Source: Acidimicrobiales bacterium (GTDB lineage: Bacteria > Actinomycetota > Acidimicrobiia > Acidimicrobiales > JAHWLA01). Taken from it: a stretch of 64,000 nucleotides of DNA. The first letter of the stretch is position 1; every line of letters begins with the position of its first letter. The position numbers were made by a program, and so were the translations under genes. The stretch spans positions 1 to 64,000 of the forward strand of contig DATLNE010000041.1 in assembly GCA_035536915.1 (NCBI GenBank). Reading direction: 5' to 3'. Positions 8,086-50,804 of this stretch are shown piece by piece. The notes beneath the pieces were generated by a model. The model saw only the letters and a list, made by a program, of their open reading frames with translations, searched no databases and was not told where the DNA came from.

Positions 8086-8099
8086 GAAGTCCTCGAGCC

Positions 8100-9045: not shown

Positions 9046-9085
9046 TGCTTCTCTGGTATGCGTATAGAGGTTCTCTGATATGCGT
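9046..9085. repeat. tandem direct repeat TATGCGTATAGAGG x2 in an AT-rich intergenic region
   Basis: ctggTATGCGTATAGAGGttctctgaTATGCGTATAGAGGcc read from the sequence. Confidence 0.5.
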
Positions 9086-9194
9086 ATAGAGGCCTTTGCT
9101 CGGGTTCGATTGGGAGGCGCCAAAGCACCCGCTAACAATGCCTACTGCTGGTACGGATAGAGCTTGCGTACCGCAATAGCTTCGTGGGGCAACG

Positions 9195-10202
9195 TCAGAG
9201 CTTGGGCGCAGGTCCGAGCCGGGGACGGGCGAAGCGGCCGATGCCTCGCGGCAGGTCGCCGGTGACGGTGGGCGCGGGGACCGACGGCGCCACCGGGGCG
9301 CGCCGAAATGGGCCGAGCAGTTGCGGCACGTGACCGGGCGCCTGGAGCAGCCCGAGGTACATGAGGATGAGCCCTACCAGCACCATGGCGGAGACCACCT
9401 GCGGCGTGCGCTCGGTCGAGGCCCGTCGGCCCCCGGGCGGCAGTGTCGACGCGGGCACTGCGGCCGACGGCCCGCTGGCCGGCCCGCTGGGTGCCACCGT
9501 CGCCTGGGTCGTCGGCAACGGCACCCCGTCCACCAGCAACGGCGGTGAGAACGTCTCGGTCGGCACCCCGAAGGCGGTGCCCGCATCGAAGCCCTCGAAG
9601 TCCTCGAACCCGGCGGGCGGCTCGTCGCCGTCGGACTGGCCCGGATACGTCGTCACGGTGATGGCGTCGGCGCCCGGCTTTTCGAACGCCACCTGGAACA
9701 CCTTGCCCGCCGTGGGTTGGAGCACGATGTTCAGCATTCCGTTGCGCACCAGTCCGCCTACGGGAAAGCGGACCTTGCCCGCGATCACCGAGCCGTAGGC
9801 CAACGCGCCGACCTCGCACGCGGGTGCCCGGTTCAGCGGCCCGCCCTCCTCGGGCGCCCACACCCGATTGGCGATGCACGCTTCCACGGCGATGTCGCCC
9901 TGCGCCTTGGGCTGGCCGGTCGTCTCGTCGGTGTCGATTGCCAGCACCAATTCGCCCACCGCTTGGTTGTCGTCGACCGGCAACCGCAGCGCGGACTTGC
10001 CGGCCGGCGCTGTGGGCTCGCCCGCCACGTAGAGCCCGCCCGGGTCGACGGGGCTGGGCGGCGAGGCGGGCAGGCCCAACGCTTCGCCCGACGCCGCCCA
10101 CCACCACGCCGTCGCCTCCGGCGCATCGGCACCCACCGGCAGCGGGCCGACGACCATGACGAACCCCGCCACCAACGCCACGACGCCCAGCAGCCGCCTC
10201 AC
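9195..10202 (-). CDS. secreted/membrane-anchored hypothetical protein ('gene B'), last gene of the Liv-like ABC operon
   Basis: GTG start overlaps the TGA of the upstream ATPase gene (GTGA at 10199-10202); N-terminal signal-like segment (RRLLGVVALVAGFVMVV) and a C-terminal TM (VVSAMVLVGLILMYLGLL). Confidence 0.5.
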   Translation of the reverse strand: MRRLLGVVALVAGFVMVVGPLPVGADAPEATAWWWAASGEALGLPASPPSPVDPGGLYVAGEPTAPAGKSALRLPVDDNQAVGELVLAIDTDETTGQPKAQGDIAVEACIANRVWAPEEGGPLNRAPACEVGALAYGSVIAGKVRFPVGGLVRNGMLNIVLQPTAGKVFQVAFEKPGADAITVTTYPGQSDGDEPPAGFEDFEGFDAGTAFGVPTETFSPPLLVDGVPLPTTQATVAPSGPASGPSAAVPASTLPPGGRRASTERTPQVVSAMVLVGLILMYLGLLQAPGHVPQLLGPFRRAPVAPSVPAPTVTGDLPRGIGRFARPRLGPAPKL

Positions 10203-33564: not shown

Positions 33565-34002
33565 GTGGGTGATCACAACGGGGCAATCGCGGCGGCGGCC
33601 ATCACGACGGTCGGCGGGATCATCGTCGCCCTGATCACGACCGGCGCCATCGGCGGCGACGACAAGGACAGCGGCCCGCCCTCCCAGTCGCAACCCACCA
33701 TGACGTTCCCGTCGATCCCGGTCGGCACCCGCACATCGTTGTTCTCCAACCGAGACAGCGGGCCGGGCGGCACCCGGGTGGTGCTCAGCGGCGAGGGGTT
33801 CGCACCCAACGAGAAGGTCACGTTCCGGCTGCACGTCCAGGAGATCGGCCGCACCACCGCCAACGCCGAGGGCCGCTTCTCCAACGTCACCGTCAGCATT
33901 CCCACCACCTACTCCAAATTCGCCCCGCAGCAATTCGACTTGGTGGCCGATGGCGAAAGCCCGGCCAACCACGCCACCACGCCGTTCACCGTCACCGGCT
34001 GA
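33565..34002 (+). CDS. hypothetical membrane-anchored protein
   Basis: 145 aa; N-terminal hydrophobic segment; no family motif. Confidence 0.35.
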   Translation: MGDHNGAIAAAAITTVGGIIVALITTGAIGGDDKDSGPPSQSQPTMTFPSIPVGTRTSLFSNRDSGPGGTRVVLSGEGFAPNEKVTFRLHVQEIGRTTANAEGRFSNVTVSIPTTYSKFAPQQFDLVADGESPANHATTPFTVTG

Positions 34003-34432
34003 GCAGTACCCGCAACGCCGCCAGCGACTTCTTCTGCATGGCCGCAACACGCCGCCGCATGACCCAGCGCTCCAGCCGGCTGAGCGGGCCGCCGGGGAAG
34101 TCGACCGTCATGCAGTGCCGCACCACCGTGCCGCCGTCGGCAGCGGGCACCAGTTCCCACTCGCTCAAGAACCGCGCGCCCACGTGGATCTCCTCGGCCA
34201 AGGCGTGGCCGGGCTCGGCCCGCACCACCTCGCTGTGGCCCACCAAGTGGTGGAGCAGCATCGACGGCTGGGCCGAAAAGCGGGTGCCCACCTCGACCGG
34301 CCCCGGCGGCGGTTCAACCTTGCGCAGCTCTGTCAGCCACTCCGGCCTGCGGGCGATGTCGGCGATGACGGCGTAGACCTCCTCCGGCGACGCCGCCACC
34401 GCGGCGGACTGCTCGATGCGGTCGCTCATCAA
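33992..34432 (-). CDS. SRPBCC (Bet v1-like/polyketide cyclase-like) family protein
   Basis: 146 aa; START/SRPBCC-like signature (PEEVYAVIADIARRPEW). Confidence 0.7.
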   Translation of the reverse strand: MMSDRIEQSAAVAASPEEVYAVIADIARRPEWLTELRKVEPPPGPVEVGTRFSAQPSMLLHHLVGHSEVVRAEPGHALAEEIHVGARFLSEWELVPAADGGTVVRHCMTVDFPGGPLSRLERWVMRRRVAAMQKKSLAALRVLLSR

Positions 34433-35199
34433 CGGTGGTCGAGCAGCAGCGACTGGGCGCTGCGGCCCACGTGGCCCTCACAGTCGTACAGCGCCGACTC
34501 GGCCAACCCTGTGCCCGTCGGGCCGTGGTGGGTGCGGCTCTGCAGGCACATCCACTCCCCCACGGGCTGGCGGTAGGCGTACACCGTCAGGTCGGGGTTG
34601 ATGAAGAGGAACCGGTTCATGGGCAGCACATGGCTGATGCCGTTGCCGAAGTCGGCGGCCGCCACCAGCCGTTGGATGCCCGACGGCTCCTCCCCTTCTA
34701 CCACCGGAACCCGCAGGCGGATCCACGACGTGCAGGGGCCGGGCGCGTCGAAGCTGCCCTCGACGTAGCGCATCTCCACCCCTTCGTTGTGGAACGCCTG
34801 CCACGGCCATTCGGCGTCCATCTTCGATGTTGTGCTGGGCAAGGCCGGAGCACCGATCTGCTCCACGTCGTCGGTCAGTTCCACCTCCGCCTCGCGGATG
34901 CGCCACGCCGTGGCCCGGCACAATTCGTGCTCGTCGTCGGACAGCACCGCCTCCAACTGCTCCACCCGCTTGCCCGGTCGCACCGTGCGCACCGCCACCT
35001 GCAACGGCGCCACCGGCACGGGTCGCAGGATTTCCACGGTCACCCGGGCGACGAGCTTGGGGTCACCGACCTCGTGCTGCTCGAAGGCGCGGGCCAGCAG
35101 GGCGGCGGGTGGCCCGCCGTGGAGGGAGTCGGGGCTCCACGGTCCGCGGGCGTAATCGGTGGGCACGAAACGGTCGCCGTCGGCGATGAAGAGGGCCAC
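34429..35199 (-). CDS. acyl-CoA thioesterase (TesB-like double hotdog)
   Basis: 256 aa; thioesterase-II-like N-terminus (PTDYARGPWSPDSLHGGPPAALLARA). Confidence 0.7.
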   Translation of the reverse strand: MALFIADGDRFVPTDYARGPWSPDSLHGGPPAALLARAFEQHEVGDPKLVARVTVEILRPVPVAPLQVAVRTVRPGKRVEQLEAVLSDDEHELCRATAWRIREAEVELTDDVEQIGAPALPSTTSKMDAEWPWQAFHNEGVEMRYVEGSFDAPGPCTSWIRLRVPVVEGEEPSGIQRLVAAADFGNGISHVLPMNRFLFINPDLTVYAYRQPVGEWMCLQSRTHHGPTGTGLAESALYDCEGHVGRSAQSLLLDHR

Positions 35200-36456: not shown

Positions 36457-37887
36457 TCAGCTCAGGTGCTCGACGAAGCGTTCGAGCTGCTTGAGGTTGC
36501 GGCACTCGAACACGCCGTCGCAGTGGGTGCCGTACTCGCTCACGATCGAGTCGCCGGTGTCCCAGTACGACTTGGGCTCGGGGTTCAGCCAGAAGACGTG
36601 GCGGGCCCGCTTGCGCATCTCCTGCACCACCCACGCTTGTGAGGCGTGGTAGTTGTTCCGGGCGTCGCCCAACAGGATCACGCTCGTCTTCGTGGTGATC
36701 TCCTTGCCCCACCGCTCCCAGAACACGTCGAAGGCGTGGCCGTAGTCGGAGTGGCCGTCGACCCACACCACGTCGGCTTCGGTGTTGACCCGGTGCACCG
36801 CCTCGGTGATGTCCTCCACGCCTTCGAAGTAGCGGGTCACCTCGTCGATGCCGTCGATGAAGACGAACGAGCGGACCTTGGAGAACTGCGACGAGATGGC
36901 ATACACCAGGTGCAAGGTGAACCGGGCGAAGGCAGCCACCGAGCCTGAGATGTCGGCGATGACCATGATCTCGGGCTTCGACGGGCGCGGGTAGCGGAAC
37001 TTGGGCTCGGCGGGCACGCCGCCGTAGCTCAGCGAGTGGCGCACGGTATTGCGGAAGTCGAGCGGCCCCTTACGGCCGTGGCGGCGCTTGCGGGCCAGCC
37101 GCACCGCCAGCTTGCGGGTCAGCGGGTAGATGGCCCGGCGCAGGGCGGCCAACTCATCCTTGGACGCGTGCATGAAGTCGATGTCTTCAGGCAACGGCTT
37201 GCGCAGCGTCTTGGCCATGGCCTCGGCGCCCCGGTCGGCCACCAGCCGCCGGCGGATCTCCGCTTCGATCTCCTTGCGCAGCTTGTCGATGCGGGACTCG
37301 AACTCGTCCTTGGCCAACCGCTCTTCCAGCGGCGTGATGGCGTCGGCCTGCTCCCGCTCGGCCTCCATGAGGCGGTCGAGCACCCCGTCGAGGTCGAGGT
37401 TCCGCAGGGTGCGGTAGAGGTAGTAGGTGCCGCCCACGGGCCGGCCCGGCTCCATGCCGCTGAAGCGCTGCACTGCTTGGCGGGCCAGCGCCTTGAGCAT
37501 GGCCTCGTCGCCTTCCATCAGCGCCTTGTAGAGCATCTCGGCCAGCTCTTCAGGCGTCATGGCCTCCATGCCGCCGCCCTTGCCCGCCTCGCGGTCGGCC
37601 ATCATCGACTGGAGCAACTCGGCCAGGTCGGCACCCGAGTCGTCGCCGTCCTCGCTGATGCGGTACTCCGAGCCCCGCATGGAGAAGTACACCTCGAAGA
37701 CGGTCTCGAACGCCTTCCAGTGGGCGTTCGACTTCACCAGGGTGGCGGCCAGCGCGTACTTGAAGGCGTCGCGATCCTCCAGCGGGATGTGCTTGACCGC
37801 CTCCATGGCGTCGAGGTTCTCGGTCAGGCTGACCGGCAGCCCGGCGGCCCGAAGTTCCTGGATGAACCCGGCGAGGAGGTCGAGCAT
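36457..37887 (-). CDS. VWA domain-containing CoxE-like protein
   Basis: 476 aa; C-terminal VWA with MIDAS-like motif (DISGSV); CoxE-like organisation downstream of a CoxD/MoxR ATPase. Confidence 0.8.
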   Translation of the reverse strand: MLDLLAGFIQELRAAGLPVSLTENLDAMEAVKHIPLEDRDAFKYALAATLVKSNAHWKAFETVFEVYFSMRGSEYRISEDGDDSGADLAELLQSMMADREAGKGGGMEAMTPEELAEMLYKALMEGDEAMLKALARQAVQRFSGMEPGRPVGGTYYLYRTLRNLDLDGVLDRLMEAEREQADAITPLEERLAKDEFESRIDKLRKEIEAEIRRRLVADRGAEAMAKTLRKPLPEDIDFMHASKDELAALRRAIYPLTRKLAVRLARKRRHGRKGPLDFRNTVRHSLSYGGVPAEPKFRYPRPSKPEIMVIADISGSVAAFARFTLHLVYAISSQFSKVRSFVFIDGIDEVTRYFEGVEDITEAVHRVNTEADVVWVDGHSDYGHAFDVFWERWGKEITTKTSVILLGDARNNYHASQAWVVQEMRKRARHVFWLNPEPKSYWDTGDSIVSEYGTHCDGVFECRNLKQLERFVEHLS

Positions 37888-37890
37888 CCC

Positions 37891-38814
37891 TTAGGCCCCG
37901 TTGACTGACAGTTCCTTGGACGCCTTGGCGATGTCGCTCTGGTACTTGAGCAGGATGTGCAGCGTCTCTTTGGCCTGCTCGGCGTCGACGTTCTCGATGC
38001 CCAGCAGCACCAGCGTGCGGGCCCAGTCGAGGGTCTCGCTCACCGACGGGTGCTTCTTCAGCTCCAACTGCCGGATCGAGCGCACGATGCGCACGACCTG
38101 GTCGGCCAGGTGCTCGGAGATGTCGGGCACGCGGGTGAGGACGATCTCCTTCTCGCGGTCGAGGTGCGGGTAGTCAACGTGCAGGTACAGGCAGCGCCGC
38201 TTCAACGCCTCCGACAGCTCACGGGTGTTGTTGGAGGTGAGGAACACCAGCGGGATCTGCTTGGCCACCACCGTGCCCAGCTCCGGCACCGACACCTGGT
38301 AGTCGGAGAGGATCTCCAGCAAGAGGGCCTCGGTCTCGACCTCGACCCGGTCGACCTCGTCGATGAGGAGGACGACGGGTTCGTCGGCCCGGATGGCCTC
38401 GAGCAGCGGGCGGGTGAGGAGGAAGTCCTCGGTGAAGATGTCGTCCTCGATCTCCTGCCACGTGGCCGAGTTGCGCTCGACCTGGATGCGCAGGAGCTGC
38501 TTCTTGTAGTTCCACTCGTACAGGGCCTTGGACTCGTCGAGCCCCTCGTAGCACTGGAGGCGGATGAGGCGGGCGCCCGTCATCTCGGCCACCGACTTGG
38601 CCAGCTGGGTCTTGCCGGTGCCGGCCGGGCCCTCGACGAGCACGGGCTTGCCGAGGCGGTCGGCCAGGTAGACGACGCCGGCGATGCCCTCGTCGGCCAG
38701 GTAGGCGACGTCACGCAGCCCCTCGCGCACTGCGCCTACGGATTCGAAGCGTTCACCCATTGGTGCAGCGTACTCCCGTACTTGACCGTGCGGTCTAGTT
38801 GATACGCTGCTCAA
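37891..38814 (-). CDS. MoxR/CoxD-like AAA+ ATPase (AAA_5/CbbQ-like)
   Basis: Walker A GPAGTGKT, Walker B VLLIDEVDR; its ATG overlaps the fic stop (ATGA at 38811-38814). Confidence 0.85.
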   Translation of the reverse strand: MSSVSTRPHGQVREYAAPMGERFESVGAVREGLRDVAYLADEGIAGVVYLADRLGKPVLVEGPAGTGKTQLAKSVAEMTGARLIRLQCYEGLDESKALYEWNYKKQLLRIQVERNSATWQEIEDDIFTEDFLLTRPLLEAIRADEPVVLLIDEVDRVEVETEALLLEILSDYQVSVPELGTVVAKQIPLVFLTSNNTRELSEALKRRCLYLHVDYPHLDREKEIVLTRVPDISEHLADQVVRIVRSIRQLELKKHPSVSETLDWARTLVLLGIENVDAEQAKETLHILLKYQSDIAKASKELSVNGA

Positions 38815-40025
38815 CTCTGATCCGCTGTCGCAGAAGGTCCAAATGGCAGCTGGGGCTCGCTGGTCAAGTCGGGGGTCTTTGAAGAAGGCGTGAAGAGGTC
38901 AGAGGTGTCGATGGGCTGACGGCCGTGGCGAAGTCGAGCACGAATTTCGAGCAAAGGCCCTGTGGCGACATAGAAGGTTCCCCGTTTCTTCCCTCGTTGC
39001 TCCAAAAGCCCGGCGTTCACCATCGACCGTAAGTCCGTCGTGGCTACCTGGTTGGAGATCTCTTCGCCCCAACTCTTCATAACCGCTCGGTAGCCCGAGT
39101 TGCGTATCCGCAGGCCGAGAGTCGCGTCGAACAGCCCTCCAATCGAGCGCTGGGGTAGGCCGCGGGCGCCGATCAACTCCTCCAGTTCGCCCCAGATTCG
39201 TTCAGACTCACGTACGCGACGGAGGACACTGCGGGCTTGCACGTAATGAGCCTGGAGACAGAAGCGCACCCACGGCCGGGCATCGTTCTGCGGATTCCAC
39301 CGGCCCATCCCGACCTGCGCTAACACGCCGTAGTAGGCGTCGGTATTGGCGCCGAGATACTCCTCGATGCTGCAGAACTCGGGGACGAGGATGCCTTCTC
39401 GGGCTAGTACCAGCGTTTGGAGGCAACGAGCCATTCGGCCGTTGCCGTCGCGGAACGGGTGGATCATCGCAAGGTTCAGATGCGCCATGGCGCCACGGAT
39501 GGTCGCTGGTACCTCAGCATGAATCGTCAGCTGCTTCACGAGTTCTTCCATCAAGCCCGGGACGAGGTCAGGGTCTGGGCCCTCGTACACGACGTCGCCC
39601 GACGCGTTGTTCCTGATCCAGATCGCTCCTGGTCGCCACAGTCCCGGACCTGCCGCCAGTGCGTACTCCGTCATCATGAAATGCAAGCTGCGGATGATGG
39701 CGGCGGTGTACTCGAAGTGTCGGTCCTGCGCGAGTTGGAGGACGTAGGTCATGGCGCGGCGGTAACCCATGACGGCATGCCAGTCCTCGTCGCGCGCCTC
39801 CGCGGGGTCGTCACCTTCGATGGCTGCGACGGCATCCTCAACGGAGACGTTGTAACCCTCGATGCTGTTCGAGCCTTGAATGGCACGAGCGGACAGGACA
39901 CGCCGAACAGAGCCAACCCACCGCCGGGGTTCGGCGACGTAGTAGCGCAACTCTCGACGTACTGCTTCGATACGGTCGAGCGCCGCCTGCTCCTCGGGAC
40001 CGATGGTCGGAATCTCGTAGATCAC
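38811..40025 (-). CDS. Fic family protein (Fic_N + Fic + C-terminal winged helix)
   Basis: canonical Fic motif HPFRDGNGRMAR; GC visibly lower (about 60%) than the flanks; AT-rich region immediately upstream. Confidence 0.85.
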   Translation of the reverse strand: MIYEIPTIGPEEQAALDRIEAVRRELRYYVAEPRRWVGSVRRVLSARAIQGSNSIEGYNVSVEDAVAAIEGDDPAEARDEDWHAVMGYRRAMTYVLQLAQDRHFEYTAAIIRSLHFMMTEYALAAGPGLWRPGAIWIRNNASGDVVYEGPDPDLVPGLMEELVKQLTIHAEVPATIRGAMAHLNLAMIHPFRDGNGRMARCLQTLVLAREGILVPEFCSIEEYLGANTDAYYGVLAQVGMGRWNPQNDARPWVRFCLQAHYVQARSVLRRVRESERIWGELEELIGARGLPQRSIGGLFDATLGLRIRNSGYRAVMKSWGEEISNQVATTDLRSMVNAGLLEQRGKKRGTFYVATGPLLEIRARLRHGRQPIDTSDLFTPSSKTPDLTSEPQLPFGPSATADQS

Positions 40026-40140
40026 GTGGCAACCTCCGCCCTTGCGAAATTACACTGTGTGCAACCTTTCTACGCATTGATAGTATCAGTTTAAGCAATT
40101 GATTCAAACAAAAATCACCGCGCTGCAGCCGCCAGCGTTC
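40026..40140. promoter_or_regulatory. AT-rich putative promoter region upstream of the fic operon
   Basis: sequence tacactgtgtgcaacctttctacgcattgatagtatcagtttaagcaattgattcaaacaaaaatcacc is strongly AT-rich in a 70% GC genome. Confidence 0.4.
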
Positions 40141-40167: not shown

Positions 40168-42453
40168 CTAGTTGAAACGGCGGCGTGCGGTCCGCAGTGC
40201 CACGCCTACCGCGACCGCCGCGCTGGTGGCGACAAGCGGGCCGAAGGTGCGGCCCAGCGGCGGGTACACCACCCAGTGCGTGAGGTAGATGGCCAGCGAC
40301 GCGCCGGCCACGGCGGCGACCGCCCGGTTGAGCGGCGCAGGCACCGGAATCGACGCCACCCAGATGAGCACCAGCAGGAAGGCAAGGACGACGACCTCGC
40401 GGCGCAGGGTGAAGAAGAACCCCGCCGTGCCCGCCACCGCCACGGCCGACAGCGCCAGCCGCTGGCGCCACGTGGTGGCGACCGCCGCCACCCACCCCAA
40501 GGCGAACAGCCAGGCCACGTAATGCGGACGGTAGATGCGCATCCCCATGTGCGGCAGCAGGCGTGCCGCCAGCGTGACGGCCAGCACCACCCACGCCACC
40601 TCGACCGGCCGGGCCCGCGCCAGGGCTCGCACCCGGGGCACGGCGAACACGGCGGCGGCGACCAGCAGGATCTGCACCAGCGCCTCGATGTACCAGAAGG
40701 CCCAATGCACCCTCGGGTTGCCGAAGTAGCCGTTGACGAGCAGCACATCGGGCAGGTCGAACTTGTCGCTGGCGCTCGCCAGGACGGCGATCCACGCCAC
40801 GCTGGGCACAACGATGCGGACGATGCTGCGCAGCATGCGGCCGGACTCGAGCTGGAAGCGGGCAAAGTTGAAGCCCGCCACCGCCAACAGGGCGTGCGCG
40901 CCCCCCTCCAGCGAGAACAGGCGGGCGTGGCTCCCCACGATGAAGACGATGGCCACGGCCCGCACCACCACGTTGGCTTCGACCCTCGGCGTGCGGCGGG
41001 GAGGGCCGGCCCGCAGCCGGTTCACAGGCGTGATGTGCCAGTGAGGCGGCAACCCGCCGAGCAGCTCCTCCAAGGCCACGCTGGCCTCGACGTACGACAG
41101 CGAGTCACCCCCCAACGACACGAAGGTGTCGTCTTCGTGCACCTCGTCGCAGCCGAGCACGGCGGCGAACAAGTCGGCCACCGTCGTCGGCCGGGCCGCG
41201 GCGACCGAGGTCGCCAGCATGGCGGCGTAGTCGGGCTTGCCGTTGGCCAGCCGGGGCACGTCGTCGACCACGTGCACGGCCGACAGCGGCAGCCCCGTGC
41301 GCTCGCACACCGCGGCGGCGTCACCCGCAAGGACCAAGCGCTCGTCGTTGCCTGCGCACACGACACCGAGCGTCCGCTCCAAGTGGTCGAGGTCGATGCG
41401 CAGCCCGAACAGCTTCACGAACCGGCCTCGTCGGCCCACGACTTGGTACAGCCCCTCAGGAGTGCGCCGGGCCAGGTCGCCGGTGTGCAACGCATCGACG
41501 GTGGCGCCCAGCGCCAAGTCAGCGGGCTGCGACGCGTAACCCATCATCACGTTGGGGCCGCGGTAGACGAGCTCGCCGTCGGCCGCGATCTCGAAGCTCC
41601 CGCCGGGGACGGGCACGCCGATGCAGTCGGGGTACGACGTCGCCAGCTCGGGCGGCAAGTAGGCCATACGCGCCGTCGCCTCCGCCTGGCCGTACATGAC
41701 GAAGAACCGCCAGCCCTTGCGCTCGCCCAAGGCGGCGAAACGCTGCACCCGTTCGGGGGCCAGTCGCCCGCCCGCTTGCGTCACCACCCGTAGGGAAGGC
41801 AGGTGCATGCCGTCGAAGCCCACCCGGTCGAGCATCTCGAACGTGTACGGCACGCCCGCCAACGAGGTCGCCTCGTGCGCACGGAAGGTGTCCCAGAAGC
41901 AGCGGTCGACCACCGACAGGCCGGTGAGCACCAGCCCGGCCCCCGCGGCAAGGTGGCTGTTGATGACCGACAGCCCGTAGCAGTAGTGCATGGGCAGCGA
42001 GGTGATCGCTCGATCGTCGGCACCCAACTCGAGGTACTCCGCGATGGCCGCGGCATTGGCGTCGAGGTTGCGGTGCGAGAGCCGCACCAGCTTGGGCGAA
42101 CCCGTCGACCCCGACGTCGACAGCAGCAGTGCCAAGTCGGGGTGCAGGTCGTGCGCAGTGCCGGAGCGACGCTCGGCGATATGGCCGCCGTCGATCACCA
42201 CGTCCGGGTCGTACTGCTCGTCGTCGCCCACCAGCACCACGTGGCCTGCCCGCAGCGCGCCCAGGTAGGCGACCAGCGAGTCAACATCGTTGCGAGCCCG
42301 CAAGAGGACCAGCCGTCGCTCGGTGCCGAGGGCGGCGCCGACGTCGTCGGCCCGTTGTGCAAGCTGGCGGTAGGTGAGCTGCCCCGCCACCGCGACCCGA
42401 TCCCCGTGCGAGTCGAGCCCGGCGGCGAACCCGGCATGTAAGGCTGACCGCAC
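40168..42453 (-). CDS. tridomain protein: AMP-dependent adenylation domain + phosphopantetheine-binding carrier + C-terminal polytopic acyltransferase-3-like membrane domain
   Basis: 761 aa; adenylation core LLSTSGSTGSPKLV; carrier Ser motif LGGDSLSYVEA; about 290 aa C-terminus with at least 8 TM and an AT3-like start (RAVAIVFIVGSH). Confidence 0.7.
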   Translation of the reverse strand: MRSALHAGFAAGLDSHGDRVAVAGQLTYRQLAQRADDVGAALGTERRLVLLRARNDVDSLVAYLGALRAGHVVLVGDDEQYDPDVVIDGGHIAERRSGTAHDLHPDLALLLSTSGSTGSPKLVRLSHRNLDANAAAIAEYLELGADDRAITSLPMHYCYGLSVINSHLAAGAGLVLTGLSVVDRCFWDTFRAHEATSLAGVPYTFEMLDRVGFDGMHLPSLRVVTQAGGRLAPERVQRFAALGERKGWRFFVMYGQAEATARMAYLPPELATSYPDCIGVPVPGGSFEIAADGELVYRGPNVMMGYASQPADLALGATVDALHTGDLARRTPEGLYQVVGRRGRFVKLFGLRIDLDHLERTLGVVCAGNDERLVLAGDAAAVCERTGLPLSAVHVVDDVPRLANGKPDYAAMLATSVAAARPTTVADLFAAVLGCDEVHEDDTFVSLGGDSLSYVEASVALEELLGGLPPHWHITPVNRLRAGPPRRTPRVEANVVVRAVAIVFIVGSHARLFSLEGGAHALLAVAGFNFARFQLESGRMLRSIVRIVVPSVAWIAVLASASDKFDLPDVLLVNGYFGNPRVHWAFWYIEALVQILLVAAAVFAVPRVRALARARPVEVAWVVLAVTLAARLLPHMGMRIYRPHYVAWLFALGWVAAVATTWRQRLALSAVAVAGTAGFFFTLRREVVVLAFLLVLIWVASIPVPAPLNRAVAAVAGASLAIYLTHWVVYPPLGRTFGPLVATSAAVAVGVALRTARRRFN

Positions 42454-42486
42454 CCTTAAAAGTTAGGCGTACCTAATACAGAGGCG

Positions 42487-43785
42487 TCAAGCCCGAACGT
42501 GGCCCTCGCCTTCGACGATGTACTTCACCGTCGTGAGCTCGCGCAGGCCCATGGGGCCGCGGGCGTGCAGCTTCTGGGTGGAGATGCCGATCTCGGCGCC
42601 GAAGCCGAACTGCTCGCCGTCGGTGAAACGGGTGGAGGCGTTGACCACCACGGCGGCGGCGTCGACCTGCTGGGTGAAGCGGGTGGCCGCAGCCATGTCG
42701 CGGGTGAGGATGGCCTCGGTGTGGCCCGACCCGAACCGGCTGATGTGCTCCATGGCGGCGTCGAGCGACGGCACCACGGCCACCGACATCTTGAGGTCGA
42801 GGAACTCGCGGCCGTAGTCATCGTCGGTGGCGGCGCCGATGCGGTCGACGAGGGCGCGGCTGGCTTTGTCGCCGACCAGCTCCACATCGGCCAACGCTTC
42901 GGCGGCCCGGGGCAGGAACTCGGCGGCCACCGACTCGTGCACGAGCAGCGACTCCGCCGCGTTACACACGGACGGCCGCTGCGTCTTGGCGTTCACCACG
43001 ATGTCGACGGCGGCATCGAGATCCGCCGTCGCATCGACATAGATGTGGCAGTTGCCGTCGCCGTCGATGACGTAGGGGACGGTGGCGTTCTCGAGGATCG
43101 ACTGGATGAGCGACGGCCCACCGCGCGGGATGAGGCAGTCGACGTAGTCGCGCAGCCGCATGAACTCGACGGCCGCTTCCCGCGAGGTGTCCTCCACCAG
43201 GATCAGCGAGTCCTCGGGCAGGCCTGCCTTGGCGAAGGCTTCACGCAAGACAGCCGCGATGGCCGTGTTGGAGCTGATGGCGGCCGACGAGCCCCGCAGG
43301 AAGGCAGCGTTGCCCGACTTGAGGCACAGGCCCGCGGCGTCGCTGGTGACGTTGGGCCGGTTCTCGTAGATGATCGCAACGACGCCGAGGGGCACGCGCA
43401 CCCGGCGGATGCGCAAGCCGTTGGGCCGCACCCAACCGTCGACCACTTCGCCCACGGGGTCGGCCAACGCTGCTACTTGGCGCAGCCCGTCGGCCATGCC
43501 TTCGACGCGTCGGGGGTCGAGGCGGAGGCGGTCGACCACCGTGGCCGTGGTGCCCGCCGCCTCGGCCCGGGCCACGTCGTCGGCGTTGGCCCGCAGGATG
43601 TCGTCGGTGCGTTCCACCAACAGGTCGGCCCCGGTGCGCAGCGCCTCGTCCTTGGCCGCCGTGGAGGTCGTCGCCAGGACGCGCGAGGCCGCTTTGGCGC
43701 GTTGTCCCAGTTCGGTCAAAGGCGTCGAGGCCACGCACGAAAGTCTACGGCAGACTGGCCCGATGACGGCCGTGCGCAAAGCCAC
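42487..43785 (-). CDS. proA: gamma-glutamyl phosphate reductase ProA
   Basis: ProA/aldehyde dehydrogenase-like motifs; start slightly uncertain. Confidence 0.85.
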
Positions 43786-44365
43786 CTATGCCGACGTCCC
43801 CGCCTTGAGCGCAGCGCTGGCGCGGGCCTTCGAGGACGACCCCATCTTCGAGTGGCTGCTGCCGCCGGGGCGCACCAAGCGGCGCATGGACCGGCTCACC
43901 AAGTCGATGGAGGTCGCACTCCGAGTCCTGCACCTGTCGCACGACTCGACGTGGACCACGCCCGACCTCGCAGGCGCGGCAGTGTGGGACCCGCCCGACA
44001 AGTGGAAGACAGGGCCACGCGACATGCTGCGCGGCGTGCCCGCCATGGCGTGGGTGCTGCGGGGCCGGTTGCTGCCCGGCATACGCGCCCTGTCGGCCGT
44101 GGAGCGCAAGCACCCGCCGGGCTCACACTGGTACCTCGCCATCCTGGGCACCGAGCCCGCCGCGCAGGGCAAAGGGGTGGGCACCGCCCTGCTGGAGCCG
44201 GTGCTCCGGCAGTGCGACGAGCGCGGCGAGGAGGCGTTCCTCGAGTCGTCGAAGGAGCGCAACGTGCCGTACTACGCCCGCTTCGGCTTCGAGGTGGTCG
44301 GTGAGGTGCAGTTCCCCGACGGGGGGCCGACCGTGTGGCAGATGCTGCGTCAGCCGCGGTCCTGA
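43763..44365 (+). CDS. GNAT family N-acetyltransferase
   Basis: 200 aa; motif [22 protein letters not shown]. Confidence 0.75.
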
Positions 44366-45117
44366 GCCTGGCTGTCGAAGAACCGCAGCAACTCGATCGG
44401 CACCGGGAACACCAGCGTGGAGTTTCGTTCGGACGCCACTTCGACCATGGTCGACAGCACGCGGAGCTGCATGGCCGCCGGTGACGCGTGGAGGATGGCG
44501 GCGGCTTCGCCCAACGACACGGCCGCTTCCTTTTCGCCCTCGGCGTGGATGATCTTGGCTCGCCGCTCGCGCTCGGCTTCGGCCTGGCGGGCCATGGCGC
44601 GGCGCATCGACTCGGGCAGCTCCACGTCCTTGAGCTCGACCAGGGTGACCTTGATGCCCCAGGGGTCGGTGAGCTGGTCGATGATCTGCTGGAGGTCCTG
44701 GTTGATGCGGTCGCGTTCGATGAGCAGGTCGTCGAGGTCGACCTGGCCGAGCACGCTGCGCAAGGTGGTCTGGGCCACCTGCGAGGTGGCGTAGAGGTAG
44801 TCCTGCACGGCGACGATGGCCCGCACCGGGTCGACCACCTGGAAGTAGGTGACGGCGTTGACCCGCACCGTCACGTTGTCCTTGGTGATGACGTCCTGGG
44901 GCGGGATGTCGTAGGTGACCGTCTGCAGGTTCACCTTCACCATGCGGTCGATGATCGGGATGATGAAGAACAGGCCCGGGCCTTTGGCACCCATGACCCG
45001 GCCCAGCCGGAAGATCACGCCGCGCTCGTACTCGGCCACGATGCGCACGGCCGAGGCGACGATCACCACGACAAGGAACAGCAGGAACCCGAGCCCGATC
45101 AGCACGCCTTCGTTCAT
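44350..45117 (-). CDS. stomatin/SPFH (slipin) family protein
   Basis: N-terminal TM then SPFH domain ([16 protein letters not shown]); ATGA overlap with nfeD. Confidence 0.8.
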
Positions 45118-46418
45118 GTCTCGCTCTCCTGTTCTACGACGAGCACCAGCCCGTCGACGTCGACCACTCGCGCCGTGGCGCCTTCGTGGAGTTCGGTGGT
45201 GCTGCGAAGTTGCCACCAGGCGCCGTCCACGAAGGCCTGCCCTCGCGGCCCGACGGTCACCTGCTGGCCGAGGAAGCGCTCGGCGCCGGTCATGGTCGAC
45301 GGCGCGGTGATGGAGCGGCGGGCGAAGCGGCCCGCGACGACCACGCCGCCGCCGACGACGGCGGCCACGGGCACGAACACGGCAGCGCTCAGTTCCAAGC
45401 CGGGCGCGTCGTCGAACAAGAAGACGCCGCTGAGGGCGAGCGCGACGGAACCACCGGCGGCGGCTACGCCTATGCCCGGGGCAAACAGTTCGAGGGCGAA
45501 CAGCACGACGGCGGCCAGCAGGAGCAGCAGGCCCACGACGTTGACGGGCAGCACGGCCACGCCGAAGAAGCCCAGCAGCATGAAGATGACCCCGACGGTG
45601 CCTGCTCCCATGATCCCGGGCGAGGCCAGTTCGTACATGAGGGCGAGGGTGCCGATCGACAGGAAGAGGAAGGTGAGGTTGGGGTCGGCCAGCCGTTGCT
45701 GGATGCGGCGGAACAGGCCCATCTCGCGCTCGTCGGTCGTTGCTCCGGCGGTGCGCGCGGTCACGGTCGACTGGTCGCCCAGTTTCACCTGGCGGCCGTC
45801 GGCTTGGCGCAGCACGTCGTCAAGGGTCGCCGCCAGAAAGTCGACGGCCCGGATGCGCACGGCGTCATCGGCCGAGACCGAGCGGCCTTCCAGCACGATG
45901 TCGCGGGCGAAGCCGATATCGCGACCACGCAAGCGGGCCAGCGACTCGGTGTAGGCGGCGGCGTCGTTCACCACCTTGCGCTCGAGGTCGCCGCCTTCCA
46001 GGTCGATGGGCGTGGCGGCGCCGATGGCCGTGCCGGGCGCCACGGCGGAGACGTGGGCGGCGAGGGCGATCACCGCACCTGCCGAGGCCGCTCGCGCGCC
46101 CTGGGGGCTGACGTAGACGACCACGGGGACGCTGGCAGAAAGGATGCGCTGCACGATCTTGCGCATCGAACTGTCGAGCCCGCCCGGGGTGTCGAGGTGC
46201 ACGAGGTAGGCGGCATAGCCGCCCCGCTCGGCCCGCCCGATGCCGTCGGCGATGTGGTCGGCGATGACGGGGGTGATGGCGTCGTCGACGGTGGTGACGA
46301 GCACCTTGGGAGCGGGCTGCGCCGCGGCCGCGGGCCAGGCTCCGAGGACCAGCGTCATCATCAGCCCAGCGATCACCCGCGCCACTGCCGCGGACTGTAA
46401 CTGAGACGCATGACACAT
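45114..46418 (-). CDS. NfeD family membrane protein (ClpP-class serine protease domain + C-terminal OB-fold)
   Basis: 434 aa; ClpP-like N-terminus, central TMs; classic nfeD-stomatin operon. Confidence 0.8.
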
Positions 46419-46453: not shown

Positions 46454-47125
46454 ATGCTCGGACTTCTGCGGCGGATGGGTCGGTACAGCTCGGCAGCGTT
46501 GTCGGAAGCCTTCGACGAACGAGCCGACCCGAAGGTGCAACTGGAGCAGGCCATGGCCGAGGCACAGGCCCAACACCGGCGTTTGCGGGAGCAGGCGGCC
46601 ACGGTCGTGGCCAACCAGAAGCACACCGAGATCCGGCTCAACCGTGCCATGGAGGAGTTGGCGGAGGTGAGCGACTCGGCCCGCCACGCCCTTCGCATCG
46701 GCGACGAACGAGCCGCCTTGTCGTACGCGGCCCGCATGGTCACCATCGAGGCGGATGTCGACGGGTTGAAGGCGTTCCACCTACACGCCAGCGGCGCTGC
46801 CGAGCAGGCCAAACGAGCCGTCGACGAGAACGCTTTAGCGCTGCAGAAGACCTTGGGCGAGCGGCAGAAGCTGCTGAGCCAGCTTGACCAAGCGCGCATG
46901 CAGGAGCAGATCAACGGCGCGCTGGCGATGCTGTCGGAGTCGGTGGGCGCCGACGTGCCCACGTTGGCCGAGGTGCGCGACAAGATCGAGCGTCGCTACG
47001 CCCGGGCGCTCGGGGTGGCCGAGTTACAAGGGCGGCTGCCCGCAGCATCGACCGGGGACTTCGAGCAGTCGCAGTTGGAGCGTCGAGCCGCCGAACGACT
47101 CGACCGCCTCCGCCTCACCCCCTGA
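46454..47125 (+). CDS. pspA: PspA/IM30 (phage-shock protein A/Vipp1) family protein
   Basis: 223 aa all-helical; PspA N-terminus (FDERADPKVQLEQAMAEAQ). Confidence 0.85.
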   Translation: MLGLLRRMGRYSSAALSEAFDERADPKVQLEQAMAEAQAQHRRLREQAATVVANQKHTEIRLNRAMEELAEVSDSARHALRIGDERAALSYAARMVTIEADVDGLKAFHLHASGAAEQAKRAVDENALALQKTLGERQKLLSQLDQARMQEQINGALAMLSESVGADVPTLAEVRDKIERRYARALGVAELQGRLPAASTGDFEQSQLERRAAERLDRLRLTP

Positions 47126-47137: not shown

Positions 47138-48294
47138 TCACGCCGCCGACGCTGATCGCGAGTGCGCGCCACTGCACGCTGCGAGTGCGCCAGGTGGTCG
47201 GGTCGTGCGGGTGCGGCCGCGTGGATCGGTGATGACCAGGGTGCCGTCGGGCTTCAGCTTCTCCGACCAGCCCGGTTGATGGCCGAGGTGGTGGTGGCGG
47301 CTGCACTTGAGCACCAGGTTGTCGAGGCTCGTGGTACCGCCGTCGTGCCACGGCATCACGTGATGCGCCTCGCACCAGTGCGACGGCCGGTCGCAGCCCT
47401 CGAACCGGCAGTGCCGGTCGCGCAGCACCAGCGCCGACCACAATGGGGCCGGGATGGTCCGGGTGGAGGTGCCGTAGTCGAGGATCGTGCTGCGGCCATC
47501 GGTGACCACCCGGTGGATCGCCGCATCGCACGCCAGCGCCTGCACCGACGCACCGTCGAGCAGCCCGCCGCCCACGAAGCTGCCGCCCTTGCCGGCACGT
47601 AGGGCTTCGTAGTCGACCACCACGTTCAGGTGCGGGCGATGCCGTCCGCCACGACGACCGCTCTGGTGGTCGAGGAAGAACCTGCAGACATCGACCAGTG
47701 CATCGGCCCTGCGCTGCGACGGCAGCACGTCGGGGTCGTCGACCATCGCCAACCGCAACGCGGTGGCCACGGTCTCGCCGCCCAGCGGGTCGAGCGAGCC
47801 GGTCAGTTCCCATTGGCCGTCCAAGGTCTGCGACAGGTGGACGCCCCTCTCGAGCTTCGGCTCGATGTCGAGCATCGCCTTCCACTGCTGCATGGCCAAC
47901 GCGGTGTCGGCCACCGATAGGTCGACCAGCGCGGGCACGACCGCCGCTTCGTGTTCCGCGAACTCGGCGTCGCATTGCGCACGATGGCCTGCACCTGTCC
48001 GCCCGTGAGGCTTCCCGACAACCAACACGCCGCCGTCATCGGCAGGGTGCGCAGCTTCTTCGCCGTGGACGCCACCGTCTTCGCGGTGCTCGCCGTCATG
48101 CCTGCGTGGTGCCGCAGCCAGGCCGTCATCGACGTCGCCCCGTCGAGCTCCCACAGGGCCTCGGCGTCGAACTCGCCGACCGCCGCCGCCAGCTTGGCGT
48201 TGAGCAGGTCCGCCACCTTCAAGACCTCTGCCAGGGCGTCGCCGTCGAGCGGAACTTCCAGCTTTTCGACGACGTCCCGCAGTTCTCCAACCAC
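47138..48294 (-). pseudogene. DUF222 + HNH endonuclease (REP13E12-like), frameshifted
   Basis: DUF222-like N-terminus in one frame (47803-48294) and the HNH C-terminus (HWCEAHHVMPW...LVLKCSRHH) in another (47138-48154); the frame switch lies near 47960-48010. Confidence 0.6.
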
Positions 48295-48361: not shown

Positions 48362-49453
48362 TTATGGAAGCACGACGAGGTCGTCGCGGTGGACGACTTC
48401 GTGGGGCAGGTCGGGAGGCAGGTCGGCCGTGCGCCGGCCCGCCCACTCCTTGACCCGCGCCGCCGAGTGACGCACGAGGCCCTTGGCGAACACCCGGCCC
48501 GCAGCATCCGCGATCTCAACGGCGTCTTCGGCCTCGAAGCTGCCCTGCACCCCGACGACCCCAGCGGGCAACAACGACGTGCCCCGCTCCGTCAGCGCTC
48601 GCCTCGCGCCGTCGTCGACGACGACCGTGCCCGACGCGCCGACGGCGAAGGCGATCCACAGCTTCCGTGCAGGGAGGCGCCGGTCGTGCGGTCGCACCAC
48701 CGTGCCGATGCCGACATCGCCCGCCACCGCACCGGCCACCACGCCGGGACGGTCGGCAGCCGCGATCACGGCCCGCACGCCCGACCACGCGGCGATCTTG
48801 GCGGCCGCCAACTTCGACGCCATGCCGCCGCTCCCCCGCACCGAGCCCGCGCCGCCCGCCACCCGTTCGAGTTCGTGGTCGACCTCCACGATTTCCTCGA
48901 TGAGCGAGGCGTCCTCGTGGAACCGGGGATCCGCGGTCAACACGCCGGGCATGTCGGTGAGGATCACCAGCACGTCGGCCGTCACCAGATGGGCGACCAG
49001 CGCGGCCAGTCGGTCGTTGTCGCCGAAGCGGATCTCGTCGTCGGCCACCGCGTCGTTCTCGTTGACGATGGGCACGACGCCGAGCTCCAGCAGGCGGATG
49101 AGGGTCTGGCGGGCGTGCAGGTACTGCTGGCGGTGCACGAAGTCGAGCGGAGCCAGGAGAACCTGGCCCGCCACCAGGTTGTGGCGTGCGAGCACGTCGT
49201 CGTAGACGCGGATGAGCCTGCCCTGCCCGACTGCTGAGACGGCTTGGAGGGTCGGCAGGTCGGTGGGCCGGGCGCCGCCGAGGCCGAGGGGCGGCAGCCC
49301 GGCGGCGATGGCGCCCGAGGTCACGACGATGACCTTGTGACCCTGGCCCCGCAGGCCCGCCACCTCCGAGCACAGCTTCTCGATGGCGAGCAGCTCGATC
49401 TCACCGTGCTCGTCGGTGAGCGACGACGTCCCGATCTTGACGACGACCTTCAT
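48362..49453 (-). CDS. proB: glutamate 5-kinase ProB (with PUA domain)
   Basis: MKVVVKIGTSSL start; 363 aa. Confidence 0.9.
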   Translation of the reverse strand: MKVVVKIGTSSLTDEHGEIELLAIEKLCSEVAGLRGQGHKVIVVTSGAIAAGLPPLGLGGARPTDLPTLQAVSAVGQGRLIRVYDDVLARHNLVAGQVLLAPLDFVHRQQYLHARQTLIRLLELGVVPIVNENDAVADDEIRFGDNDRLAALVAHLVTADVLVILTDMPGVLTADPRFHEDASLIEEIVEVDHELERVAGGAGSVRGSGGMASKLAAAKIAAWSGVRAVIAAADRPGVVAGAVAGDVGIGTVVRPHDRRLPARKLWIAFAVGASGTVVVDDGARRALTERGTSLLPAGVVGVQGSFEAEDAVEIADAAGRVFAKGLVRHSAARVKEWAGRRTADLPPDLPHEVVHRDDLVVLP

Positions 49454-49577
49454 TACGGCAGCACCGGCCGAAGGCCGGTTCCTCTCTGCGCTCCAGCGAC
49501 GGGTGGCAGGCGCGGAGGGGTCCCCGCCCGAGGGACGAGGGCGGGGAGGTGCCGAGCCTGACGGAACCCGGAGCGCA

Positions 49578-50804
49578 TTACGGCTCGTACTCGAAGCTGA
49601 AGCCGCCGATGTGCACGATGTCGCCCTCGCGCGCGCCCGCCCGCGCCAGCGCCCGGTCGACGCCGAGGCGCTTGAGCCGGCCCTGCACGTAGGCGAGGGC
49701 TTGGGCATTGGTGATGTCGGACACCGCCACGGCCCGCTCGGCCGCCTTGCCCCGCACAACGAACGCGCCGTCGTCGCCCCGTTCGATGAGCAGCCCTTCG
49801 GCCTCGGGCCGGTGCACCACGAAGCCCACCGCCTCGGGCAGTTCCTTGCGCGCCTCTTCGACGAGCACGGCCAATTGGCCCAGCAGTGCGGGGATGCCCG
49901 CCCCCGTCACGGATGAGATGAGATTCCCATCCCACATGCTGAACGCGACATCGGCCTTGGTCCCGACGGTGACGCGAGGGCGCTCCAGCAGCTCAGGGCG
50001 GTACTGGCCCAGCTCCTGCAGAAGGATGCGCTCCTGTTCTTCCGGCGGCGTGCCGTCGGCGGCGGCCAGGTCGAGCAGCACCACGAGCACGCGCGCCCGC
50101 TCGACGTGACGAAGGAACCGGTGCCCCAGCCCCTTGCCCTCGCTGGCCCCTTCGATGAGCCCGGGGATGTCGGCCACCACGAACTCGTGCTCGTCGTAAC
50201 GCACGACGCCGAGGTTGGGCACCAGGGTGGTGAACGGGTAGTCGGCGATCTTGGGCTTGGCCGCCGAGATGCGGGAGATGAGCGTCGACTTGCCGGCGTT
50301 GGGGAAGCCGACGAGGGCGACGTCGGCCATGAGCTTGAGCTCGAGGTTGTACCAATGCTCCTCACCGACCTCGCCCTGCTCGGCGAAGCTCGGCGCCCGG
50401 CGGCTGTTGGAGAGGAAGGTGGCGTTGCCTCGCCCGCCCCGTCCGCCGGCCCCGGCCATCCAGCGGTCGCCGTCGTTGGAGAGGTCGGCCGCCACGTTGC
50501 CTTCGAGGTCCTTGACCACCGTGCCGATGGGGACTTTGACGATGGTGTCGGCGCCGTTGGCACCGTGCTTGGCGCGGCCCGCGCCGTGCCCGCCGTTGCC
50601 CGCCCGCCGGTGCGGGTGGTCACGGAACTGGAGGAGCGAGGCCACGTCGTGGTCGGCCACCAGCCACACGTCGCCGCCCTTGCCGCCGCTGCCGCCGTCG
50701 GGCCCGCCCTTGGGCGTGTGGGCCTCACGACGGAACGACACCGAGCCCGCGCCGCCGTCGCCCGCCTTCACGTGCAGCTGGGCCTCGTCGACGAACCCGG
50801 CCAT
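49578..50804 (-). CDS. obg: GTPase Obg/CgtA
   Basis: Obg fold N-terminus (FVDEAQLHVKAGDGGAG), G-domain motifs (GFPNAGKST, DIPGLIEGAS). Confidence 0.9.
   Translation of the reverse strand: MAGFVDEAQLHVKAGDGGAGSVSFRREAHTPKGGPDGGSGGKGGDVWLVADHDVASLLQFRDHPHRRAGNGGHGAGRAKHGANGADTIVKVPIGTVVKDLEGNVAADLSNDGDRWMAGAGGRGGRGNATFLSNSRRAPSFAEQGEVGEEHWYNLELKLMADVALVGFPNAGKSTLISRISAAKPKIADYPFTTLVPNLGVVRYDEHEFVVADIPGLIEGASEGKGLGHRFLRHVERARVLVVLLDLAAADGTPPEEQERILLQELGQYRPELLERPRVTVGTKADVAFSMWDGNLISSVTGAGIPALLGQLAVLVEEARKELPEAVGFVVHRPEAEGLLIERGDDGAFVVRGKAAERAVAVSDITNAQALAYVQGRLKRLGVDRALARAGAREGDIVHIGGFSFEYEP

Follow-up and report, generated by a model that had tools for sequence, protein, structure and literature searches.

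An adenylation–carrier–AT3 fusion protein of the predicted iron regulon, linked to FbpABC-type importers in two bacterial phyla

Introduction

Membrane acyltransferases of the AT3/TmAT class modify O-antigen, peptidoglycan, capsules and antibiotics. Members such as OafA/OafB, OatA, Oac, WecH and human HGSNAT use acyl-CoA as donor, and are found as stand-alone domains or with a carboxy-terminal SGNH or racemase domain. Here, we describe a gene in which an AT3 domain is instead preceded by an adenylation-carrier module, implying an acyl-phosphopantetheinyl-protein as donor, and which is predicted to be iron-regulated. The gene is located on the minus strand of a 64,000-nucleotide stretch (the window) of contig DATLNE010000041.1 (assembly GCA_035536915.1), from an Acidimicrobiales metagenome-assembled genome of about 70% GC. 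It is an open reading frame (ORF) of 761 codons with a GTG start, and we refer to this type of gene as A-T-AT3 (adenylation–carrier–AT3). With high confidence, intact ANL adenylation, carrier and AT3/TmAT domains are joined in one polypeptide, and in two phyla the family is tied to FbpABC-type importers and to the operator of the local iron regulator.

Several described systems resemble this protein in part. The DltABCD pathway also adenylates an acid without a CoA pool, loads it onto a carrier and passes it to a polytopic O-acyltransferase with a catalytic histidine near the outer face. However, the protein described here contains an AT3 and not an MBOAT domain, is one fused chain, has no DltD-like partner, lacks the amine-binding aspartate of the adenylation domain, and is found in an iron context where Dlt serves surface-charge control. 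The epsilon-poly-L-lysine synthetase Pls and the delta-poly-L-ornithine synthetase PosA likewise combine a single adenylation-carrier module with a membrane domain and have no canonical condensation or thioesterase domains. Their six transmembrane helices are interleaved with three soluble condensation-like domains and they use diamino acids, whereas here the membrane domain is a continuous helical AT3 bundle of 272 residues and the pocket does not look like that of an amino acid-activating enzyme. The mycobactin module FadD33 (MbtM)-MbtL-MbtK of Mycobacterium tuberculosis is an IdeR-repressed set of adenylating enzyme, carrier and acyltransferase for iron acquisition, but it consists of three separate soluble proteins, with a GNAT-type acyltransferase that places a fatty acyl group on the siderophore core in the cytoplasm. 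The FbpABC/HitABC/SfuABC importers, finally, are genetic partners with shared iron boxes, in operons or divergons, and are not homologues.

In the AT3 literature, bacterial carbohydrate acetyltransferases come in AT3-only and AT3-SGNH architectures, and fusions to alanine racemase and to eukaryotic domains are described besides; acyl-CoA is taken as the donor and acyl carrier protein is discounted. A fusion to an adenylation or carrier domain is not mentioned in the AT3 review or in the AT3-fold, TmAT and OafA/OafB papers, and a literature search for the A-T-AT3 architecture or for an iron link yielded no description. The parts are known singly; the combination, the implied type of donor and the physiological context are new. 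Two candidates from the literature were set aside: AtsA of Actinoplanes, which is a stand-alone AT3 protein, and DesG with the iron boxes of PMC5812494, which are unrelated.

Domain organization

All three domains score above their curated Pfam cut-offs in the 761-residue protein: AMP-binding with an E-value of 4e-42, PP-binding with 6e-7 (30.0 bits against a cut-off of 20.8, residues 424–466) and Acyl_transf_3 (PF01757) with 1.2e-9 (38.2 bits against a cut-off of 31, residues 496–748, corresponding to profile positions 6–311 of 326). An earlier sequence-only reading of this DNA had proposed the same layout, namely an AMP-forming adenylation domain, a phosphopantetheine site LGGDSLSYV and a carboxy-terminal polytopic domain resembling acyltransferase-3. 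The site is located at residues 447–455, with Ser451, in the GGDSL motif, as the predicted attachment residue. In the alignment the carrier serine is present in 85 of the 85 homologues on which all residue counts below are based, being invariant across phyla, and the carboxy-terminal domain does not match any non-acyltransferase transporter family, so the tridomain reading stands.

The same organization is repeated in thousands of homologues, of which the top 120 are 52–87% identical to the protein and all come from Actinomycetota; the ORF is thus a real gene, neither a chance frame nor a product of fused ORFs. The NCBI entry that is 100% identical is named 'AMP-binding protein [Acidimicrobiales bacterium]', and database names of A-T-AT3 proteins are only 'AMP-binding protein' or 'non-ribosomal peptide synthetase'. 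Residue numbers given here are those of the ORF; the alignments and the full-length AlphaFold2 model (AF2; predicted local distance difference test score, pLDDT, 90.5) begin at residue 2, so ORF numbers equal alignment numbers plus 1. Coordinates of domains, key residues and neighbouring genes are collected in Table 1.

Linkage to FbpABC-type transporters

A scan with one genome per species revealed at least 579 loci. All of the best 80 among the matches listed belong to Actinomycetota (Arthrobacter, Kocuria, Micromonospora, Streptomyces, Nocardioides, Rhodococcus, Nocardia, Saccharothrix, Actinomadura and Acidimicrobiia); flanking ORFs were clustered for 76 loci, and box counts refer to 75. 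Three neighbours recur: a solute-binding protein (40/76), a fused double permease (31/76) and an ABC ATPase (16/76), and at least part of an FbpABC-like transporter is adjacent in 45 of the 76 loci. The binding protein is a true homologue of FbpA/HitA/SfuA, matching PDB entry 7w3w with an E-value of 5e-79 and the FbpA structures of Thermus, Haemophilus, Serratia and Neisseria with E-values of 1e-51 to 1e-62. In 13 loci the transporter genes lie on the same strand with the A-T-AT3 gene last, several of them with overlapping or near-abutting coding sequences; in another 24 the gene is divergent from fbpA, and the remaining eight show a partial or other arrangement.

On Rhodococcus plasmids, the A-T-AT3 gene is followed, in an operon, by genes for an 'iron ABC transporter substrate-binding protein', a permease and an ATPase; the first two genes of this operon overlap by 4 bp in R. 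fascians D188. In locus L087 (positions 1–16000), the D188 plasmid operon is located in a metal-homeostasis island, together with genes for an Nramp transporter, an ArsR/SmtB regulator, a P-type ATPase and a cadmium-resistance transporter.

Iron boxes in Actinomycetota

As the transporter link suggested iron, upstream regions were searched for the 19-bp actinobacterial IdeR/DmdR/DtxR iron box TWAGGTWAGSCTWACCTWA, allowing up to three mismatches. The window contains a single such box in its 64 kb, where 0.00 were expected from 100 shuffles; the runner-up site has six mismatches. It is located in the 33-bp gap between the stop codon of proA and the GTG start of the A-T-AT3 gene, where it overlaps a -10-like hexamer. 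The window gene thus likely has its own promoter region bearing a predicted IdeR/DtxR-type box.

In 60 of the 75 loci, the best box of the locus (about 18 kb) lies directly upstream of the gene, mostly 12–13 nt ahead of the called start. Of the other 15 loci, most have it about 3.6–3.9 kb upstream, which is the position of fbpA in the same-strand loci. When all sequences (1.24 Mb) are considered, there are 84 boxes with up to three mismatches, 67 of them within 350 nt upstream of the A-T-AT3 gene; 50 likewise precede fbpA, and of the other 17 most are at fbpA. Loci without a transporter neighbour keep the box, which shows that it is not borrowed from fbpA. In a metagenomic locus with 64% alignment identity (L084), the gene is divergent from bfd (Fer2_BFD) and the bacterioferritin gene bfr, with two degenerate iron boxes in the shared intergenic region. 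Judging from these operators and neighbours, the A-T-AT3 family very probably belongs to the iron regulon. In L084, the positions concerned are 7178–7856 and 7895–7986, and the 3' end of the A-T-AT3 gene shares 4 bp with a cytochrome P450 gene.

The promoter-like elements of the window gene, TTGACG and TAACTT, are spaced by 19 nt. The same arrangement, TTGAC(A/G)-N19-TAACNN with the box between, is present in a locus with an 87% identical protein (L083) and in one with 61% identity (L085). This layout suggests a leaderless transcript, with the putative operator lying over the -10 element.

Orthologues in Alphaproteobacteria

A tblastn search of a plasmid and chromid collection revealed full-length orthologues in Sinorhizobium, Rhizobium, Pararhizobium, Leisingera and Paracoccus, with 38–40% alignment identity. 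In an alignment of all seven plasmid and chromid orthologues, the same invariant pocket and catalytic residues are kept. All three Pfam matches are seen in the S. meliloti copy, those to AT3 and PP-binding lying at or under their cut-offs. Rhizobiaceae use RirA instead of IdeR as iron regulator. In five out of five Rhizobiaceae orthologues, a TGA-N9-TCA (RirA/IRO-type) motif is found 50–82 nt upstream, within (A/G)(C/T)TTGAC, to be set against a background of 23 motifs in 55.9 kb. As the TTGAC may also serve as a -35 element, the case is less strong here than for the IdeR boxes. The Pararhizobium sp. A13 gene diverges from an operon annotated as 'ABC ATPase - Fe(3+) ABC transporter substrate-binding protein - iron ABC permease', and the FbpABC link is thus repeated in another phylum. 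In the Rhodobacterales loci of Leisingera (L090) and Paracoccus (L091), neither IdeR-type nor TGA-N9-TCA boxes were found. Upstream of the Leisingera gene (L090, about positions 5950–5994) there is an AT-rich TTGACAAAATTAGTAAATTATC stretch, a possible iron operator of another kind.

Gene order points to SMc00592 as the orthologue in S. meliloti, with SMc00591, encoding a signal-peptide protein, upstream, and genes for a DinB-family protein and a glutathione S-transferase as well as ndk (SMc00595) downstream. A cluster look-up of the S. meliloti protein returned no locus tag. SMc00592 is annotated as 'hypothetical, transmembrane protein' and is listed in Table 2 of PMC2848241 as part of a 36-gene subset, S36, whose genes are co-induced under the same conditions and include 17 for iron uptake (hmu, rhb, fhuF and iron ABC).

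Adenylation domain and substrate pocket

The core motifs of the ANL fold are all present: A3 STSGSTGSPK, A5 YGQAE, A7 TGD, A8 GRRGRFVKLFGLRIDL and A10 NGK, the last of which contains Lys406. In the 85-sequence alignment STSGSTGSPK, YGQ(T/A)E, TGD, GRxxRxxKxxGxR and Lys406 are invariant, in Actinomycetota and Alphaproteobacteria alike. Generally, the domain is compact and divergent; its best NCBIfam and PDB matches are far under the family cut-offs and include VinN, oxalyl-CoA and malonyl-CoA synthetases, MenE and PltF, with the DltA structures 7vhv and 7r27 also among the PDB matches. Foldseek comparison with the PDB gives a probability of 1.0 to MenE, PltF, AAE3 and LgrA.

Two pocket residues stand out in pairwise HMMER alignments. 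Cys158 aligns with an aspartate of PltF and with Asp230 of VinN, the position of GrsA Asp235, while Arg262 aligns with Arg331 of VinN, position 331 of GrsA. The amine-binding Asp235 is thus not present at its position, which is occupied by cysteine in 84 of the 85 homologues and by serine in the rhizobial orthologues; both phyla keep Arg262 without exception. VinN uses Asp230 to bind the amino group of its substrate, and Ser299 and Arg331 to bind the free carboxylate (PMC11253843, PMC7756342). Given the cysteine or serine at the amine-binding position and the invariant arginine at the VinN carboxylate position, the substrate is predicted, with moderate to low confidence, not to be a canonical alpha-amino acid and probably to carry an anionic group. 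The sequence-only reading had offered a carboxylic or an amino acid as substrate; of these two the carboxylic acid is kept, and the replacement of the aspartate makes an alpha-amino acid unlikely. The approximate ten-residue specificity code reads C-Y-S-(Y/H)-T-A-M-A-R-K, which to our knowledge equals no known code. With the dihydroxybenzoate code of DhbE it has only positions 236 and 239 (Y and S) in common.

No biosynthetic genes recur beside the A-T-AT3 gene in the clustering of flanking ORFs from the 76 loci. The acid is therefore likely a common metabolite without a cellular pool of its CoA-thioester, which would explain a dedicated loader.

Carrier and membrane domain

The carrier serine is followed by a conserved LPxxW linker containing Trp472. 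In some members, long low-complexity or repeat inserts are present between the A10 motif and the carrier, as in P0131 (990 residues) and in L082 (positions 1–256, with GTAGSRADREHST as the repeat unit); the linker between the adenylation and carrier domains thus tolerates big expansions.

The AF2 model of the membrane domain (pLDDT 93, predicted template modelling score, pTM, 0.89) contains about ten helices and matches the ten-helix core fold common to HGSNAT and GWT1. In its first transmembrane helix (TMH1), R498-X10-H509 is conserved in all 85 homologues and invariant across the two phyla. R-X10-H is the absolutely conserved, defining motif of AT3 proteins, with the histidine at the outer face beside the donor thioester (PMC9833829). 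Trp587, Glu590, Arg631 and Tyr723 are also invariant and His726 nearly so, across two phyla and at 38–57% overall identity. Arginine-rich stretches are located in the linker between the carrier and TMH1, in the turn between TMH2 and TMH3, in a 'PRVRALARAR' segment and in the carboxy-terminal tail. They fit a topology with both ends of the membrane domain in the cytoplasm, which is thus predicted, and would place the ATP-dependent adenylation-carrier module there too.

When the full-length model is compared with the PDB by Foldseek, only adenylation enzymes are found; the AT3 fold becomes visible with the domain-only model. A profile search of PDB sequences with the AT3 domain gave zero matches. 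Compared with other AT3/TmAT proteins, the protein in the window has only R-X3-R in place of RXXR. Its AT3 domain belongs to a small, divergent subfamily, with 1,902 matches at E ≤ 1e-3 in a search of 1.84 billion representatives; in the rhizobial and Rhodococcus copies, the Acyl_transf_3 score is under the Pfam cut-off. Ten matches from this search, mostly short, were inspected for split versions, three of them together with their contigs. In these three, no natural split (carrier plus AT3, or AT3 alone) is proven: one is an edge fragment, one an ambiguous open frame, and the third, P0131, is a full-length gene with a long linker.

Proposed function and alternatives

We lean towards carrier-fed transmembrane acyl transfer, induced by iron starvation and supporting the acquisition of Fe(III), a reading we hold to be somewhat more probable than not. 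The load-and-transfer role suggested by the sequence-only reading is supported. Upon iron limitation, the repressor would leave the box and the gene would be transcribed. The adenylation domain would then adenylate a small carboxylic acid other than an alpha-amino acid, probably an anionic, dicarboxylic or hydroxy-acid, and the acid would be thioesterified to the phosphopantetheine arm on Ser451. The carrier may dock at the cytoplasmic face of the AT3 domain and pass its acyl-pantetheine arm into the pore, where known AT3 enzymes use acyl-CoA instead. His509, at the outer end of TMH1, would catalyse acyl transfer to an extracytoplasmic acceptor, and the resulting Fe(III)-binding group or compound may help to bring Fe(III) to FbpA. 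As the partner importer takes free Fe(III) and not ferric siderophores, the product may raise the supply of Fe(III) to FbpA; hypothetical examples are envelope polymers esterified with Fe(III)-binding carboxylates, or a chelator that is set free. A bolder form of this proposal, which we put forward only tentatively, is that the protein is the missing 'front end' of siderophore-independent ferric uptake in Actinomycetota and Rhizobiaceae. When iron is scarce, the enzyme would esterify or release a common Fe(III)-chelating di- or hydroxy-carboxylate outside the membrane, giving a surface capture layer that feeds FbpA, and would be the first AT3 enzyme fed by a phosphopantetheinyl carrier.

Several observations weigh against carrier-fed transfer in the service of iron uptake. 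In 31 of the 76 loci there is no adjacent transporter, and the window is of this kind: it contains no FbpABC genes, only generic ABC ATPase similarity at about 10.3–11.8 kb. We infer the substrate, the acceptor and the direction of transfer alike, and the argument from Arg262 for a carboxylate comes down to one aligned position at about 25% identity. The box in the window is imperfect, with three mismatches and a weak right arm, and so its function is likely but not certain. A strict sigma-70 promoter scan called no promoter, as the conserved spacer is 19 nt long. The RXXR motif, on the cytoplasmic face of TMH3, is only approximated by R542-SIV-R546-IVVP, with a spacing of three instead of two. 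R546 is conserved in 95% of the homologues, with arginine or lysine there in 83/85, and residue 542 is an arginine in 45 of the 85 (53%); an additional arginine, R532, is present in 84/85 and located with R546 on the cytoplasmic side of TMH2-3. The full-length model has a pTM of 0.59 and does not establish docking of the carrier to the AT3 domain, and SMc00592 was assigned by gene order, not by sequence. Characterised AT3 enzymes, moreover, use acyl-CoA and not a carrier protein as donor (PMC9558356).

Tailoring of a siderophore is an alternative that we consider unlikely: the enzyme would acylate a siderophore, or a glycosylated precursor of it, during or after export. A gene in the iron regulon fits this, as does the logic of adenylation, carrier and acyltransferase known from the IdeR-controlled mycobactin module. 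AT3 enzymes that acylate small-molecule glycosides, such as macrolide sugars, are also described (PMC9558356). However, no siderophore genes of the nonribosomal peptide synthetase, NRPS-independent synthetase (NIS) or polyketide synthase type recur beside the gene in the 76 loci, the linked importer is of the free-Fe(III) FbpA class and not siderophore-binding, and the pocket arginine and compact adenylation domain disfavour a fatty acyl substrate. The family would also be an AT3 counterpart of DltA/DltC/DltB if it transferred an amino acid (D-Ala or Lys) onto teichoic acid or other wall polymers, altering the surface charge without a specific role in iron. The order of adenylation, carrier and polytopic O-acyltransferase domains is the same and DltA structures are among the matches mentioned above, but the position of the amine-binding aspartate is held by cysteine or serine, no conserved DltD/SGNH partner is found nearby in the 76 loci, iron boxes and FbpABC linkage are family-wide, and the family is present in diderm Alphaproteobacteria too. 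Such aminoacylation is therefore distinctly improbable.

Synthesis of a homopolymer or oligo-ester in the membrane, in which hydroxy-acids would be joined iteratively and extruded as a polyanionic chain possibly binding iron, is brought to mind by the single adenylation-carrier module fused to a membrane domain without condensation or thioesterase domains, as in Pls and PosA (PMC10522769). Here, though, the membrane part is an AT3 fold of 270 residues without the soluble condensation-like domains C1–C3, and no polymerising AT3 enzyme is known, which makes this very improbable. Least probable of all is a catalytically dead AT3 domain that merely anchors an adenylation-carrier didomain loading its substrate for an unlinked partner. 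The modest Pfam score of the AT3 domain (38 bits, and lower in the copies that miss the cut-off) and the degenerate RXXR motif would be compatible with decay, whereas the conservation of R498, H509, W587, E590, R631, Y723 and, nearly, H726 over such distances, the intact fold and the lack of a proven stand-alone AT3 protein among the three contigs examined argue for an active enzyme.

For carrier-fed transmembrane acyl transfer in iron acquisition, the consequences would be twofold. The built-in loader, in a widespread family, predicts a second type of AT3 donor, along with an AT3 counterpart to the Dlt pathway. The family's boxes are of the IdeR type in Actinomycetota and of the RirA type, for an unrelated regulator, in Rhizobiaceae; together with repeated membership of FbpABC operons, they point to an undescribed component of iron acquisition, which may bear on how free Fe(III) is supplied to FbpA-type proteins in bacteria without transferrin receptors. 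With the iron-regulon and FbpABC link across two phyla, what was an orphan domain fusion becomes a hypothesis on the acquisition of ferric iron that can be tested, and tractable hosts carry the family: Arthrobacter, Rhodococcus and S. meliloti (SMc00592, by synteny).

The locus in the window

The sequence-only reading had also pointed out that the gene lies next to proA. The adjacency is real, but proA is a neighbour in none of the 76 related loci, so it is coincidental and carries no functional meaning. In the window, proB and proA are themselves parted by about 4.5 kb of unrelated genes (Table 1).

Table 1. Positions of the A-T-AT3 gene, its domains and key residues, its putative control elements and its neighbours in the window.
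Feature	Position	Strand	Basis or remark
A-T-AT3 ORF (761 residues)	40168..42453	-	stop codon 40168-40170; Pfam and homologues
Adenylation (ANL) domain, residues 1-416	41206..42453	-	Pfam and motif alignment
Carrier domain (resembling peptidyl carrier proteins), residues 420-480	41014..41196	-	Pfam and alignment
AT3/TmAT membrane acyltransferase domain, residues 490-761	40171..40986	-	about 10 transmembrane helices; Pfam and model
Cys158	41980-41982		pairwise HMMER alignment
Arg262	41668-41670		pairwise HMMER alignment
Lys406	41236-41238		A10 motif
Ser451	41101-41103		GGDSL motif
Arg498	40960-40962		TMH1
His509	40927-40929		TMH1
Predicted IdeR/DtxR-type iron box, gene strand TTAGGTACGCCTAACTTTT	42458..42476	.	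4 nt upstream of GTG; box search
-10-like hexamer TAACTT	42460..42465	-	-12 to -7 from the G of GTG, under the iron box; read from sequence
-35-like hexamer TTGACG	42485..42490	-	overlaps proA stop codon; candidate from sequence layout
Terminator-like GC hairpin, then GATTTTTGTT	40117..40137	-	about 30 nt past the stop codon; weak, number of sites not above chance
proA	42487..43785	-	NF001221, 2e-177; directly upstream of the A-T-AT3 gene (33 bp)
SPFH/Band 7 gene	44350-45216		pair with NfeD; between proB and proA
NfeD gene	45114-46418		pair with SPFH/Band 7; between proB and proA
PspA gene	46454-47125	+	between proB and proA
HNH/DUF222 endonuclease gene	47138-48154		between proB and proA
proB	48362-49759		
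Fic-domain gene	38811-40025	-	directly downstream of the A-T-AT3 gene; overlaps next gene by 4 bp
MoxR/CoxD-like AAA ATPase gene	37891-38814	-	tight pair with VWA gene
CoxE-type VWA protein gene	36457-37887	-	tight pair with MoxR gene
TesB-like acyl-CoA thioesterase gene	34429-35199	-	about 5 kb downstream
SRPBCC/polyketide-cyclase-like protein gene	33992-34432	-	about 5 kb downstream

The neighbours of the gene in the window (Fic, MoxR-VWA, SPFH-NfeD, PspA and the HNH endonuclease) give no functional clue. The thioesterase was considered as a member of the system and rejected, as just one further locus (L034) has a relative of it in the vicinity of the gene. The Fic gene has a third-position GC content of 0.73, compared with about 0.92 for its neighbours, and the region from 38 to 40 kb is the stretch of lowest GC content in the window (0.641). 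Its composition suggests that this gene was inserted recently, parting the A-T-AT3 gene from the MoxR-VWA pair.

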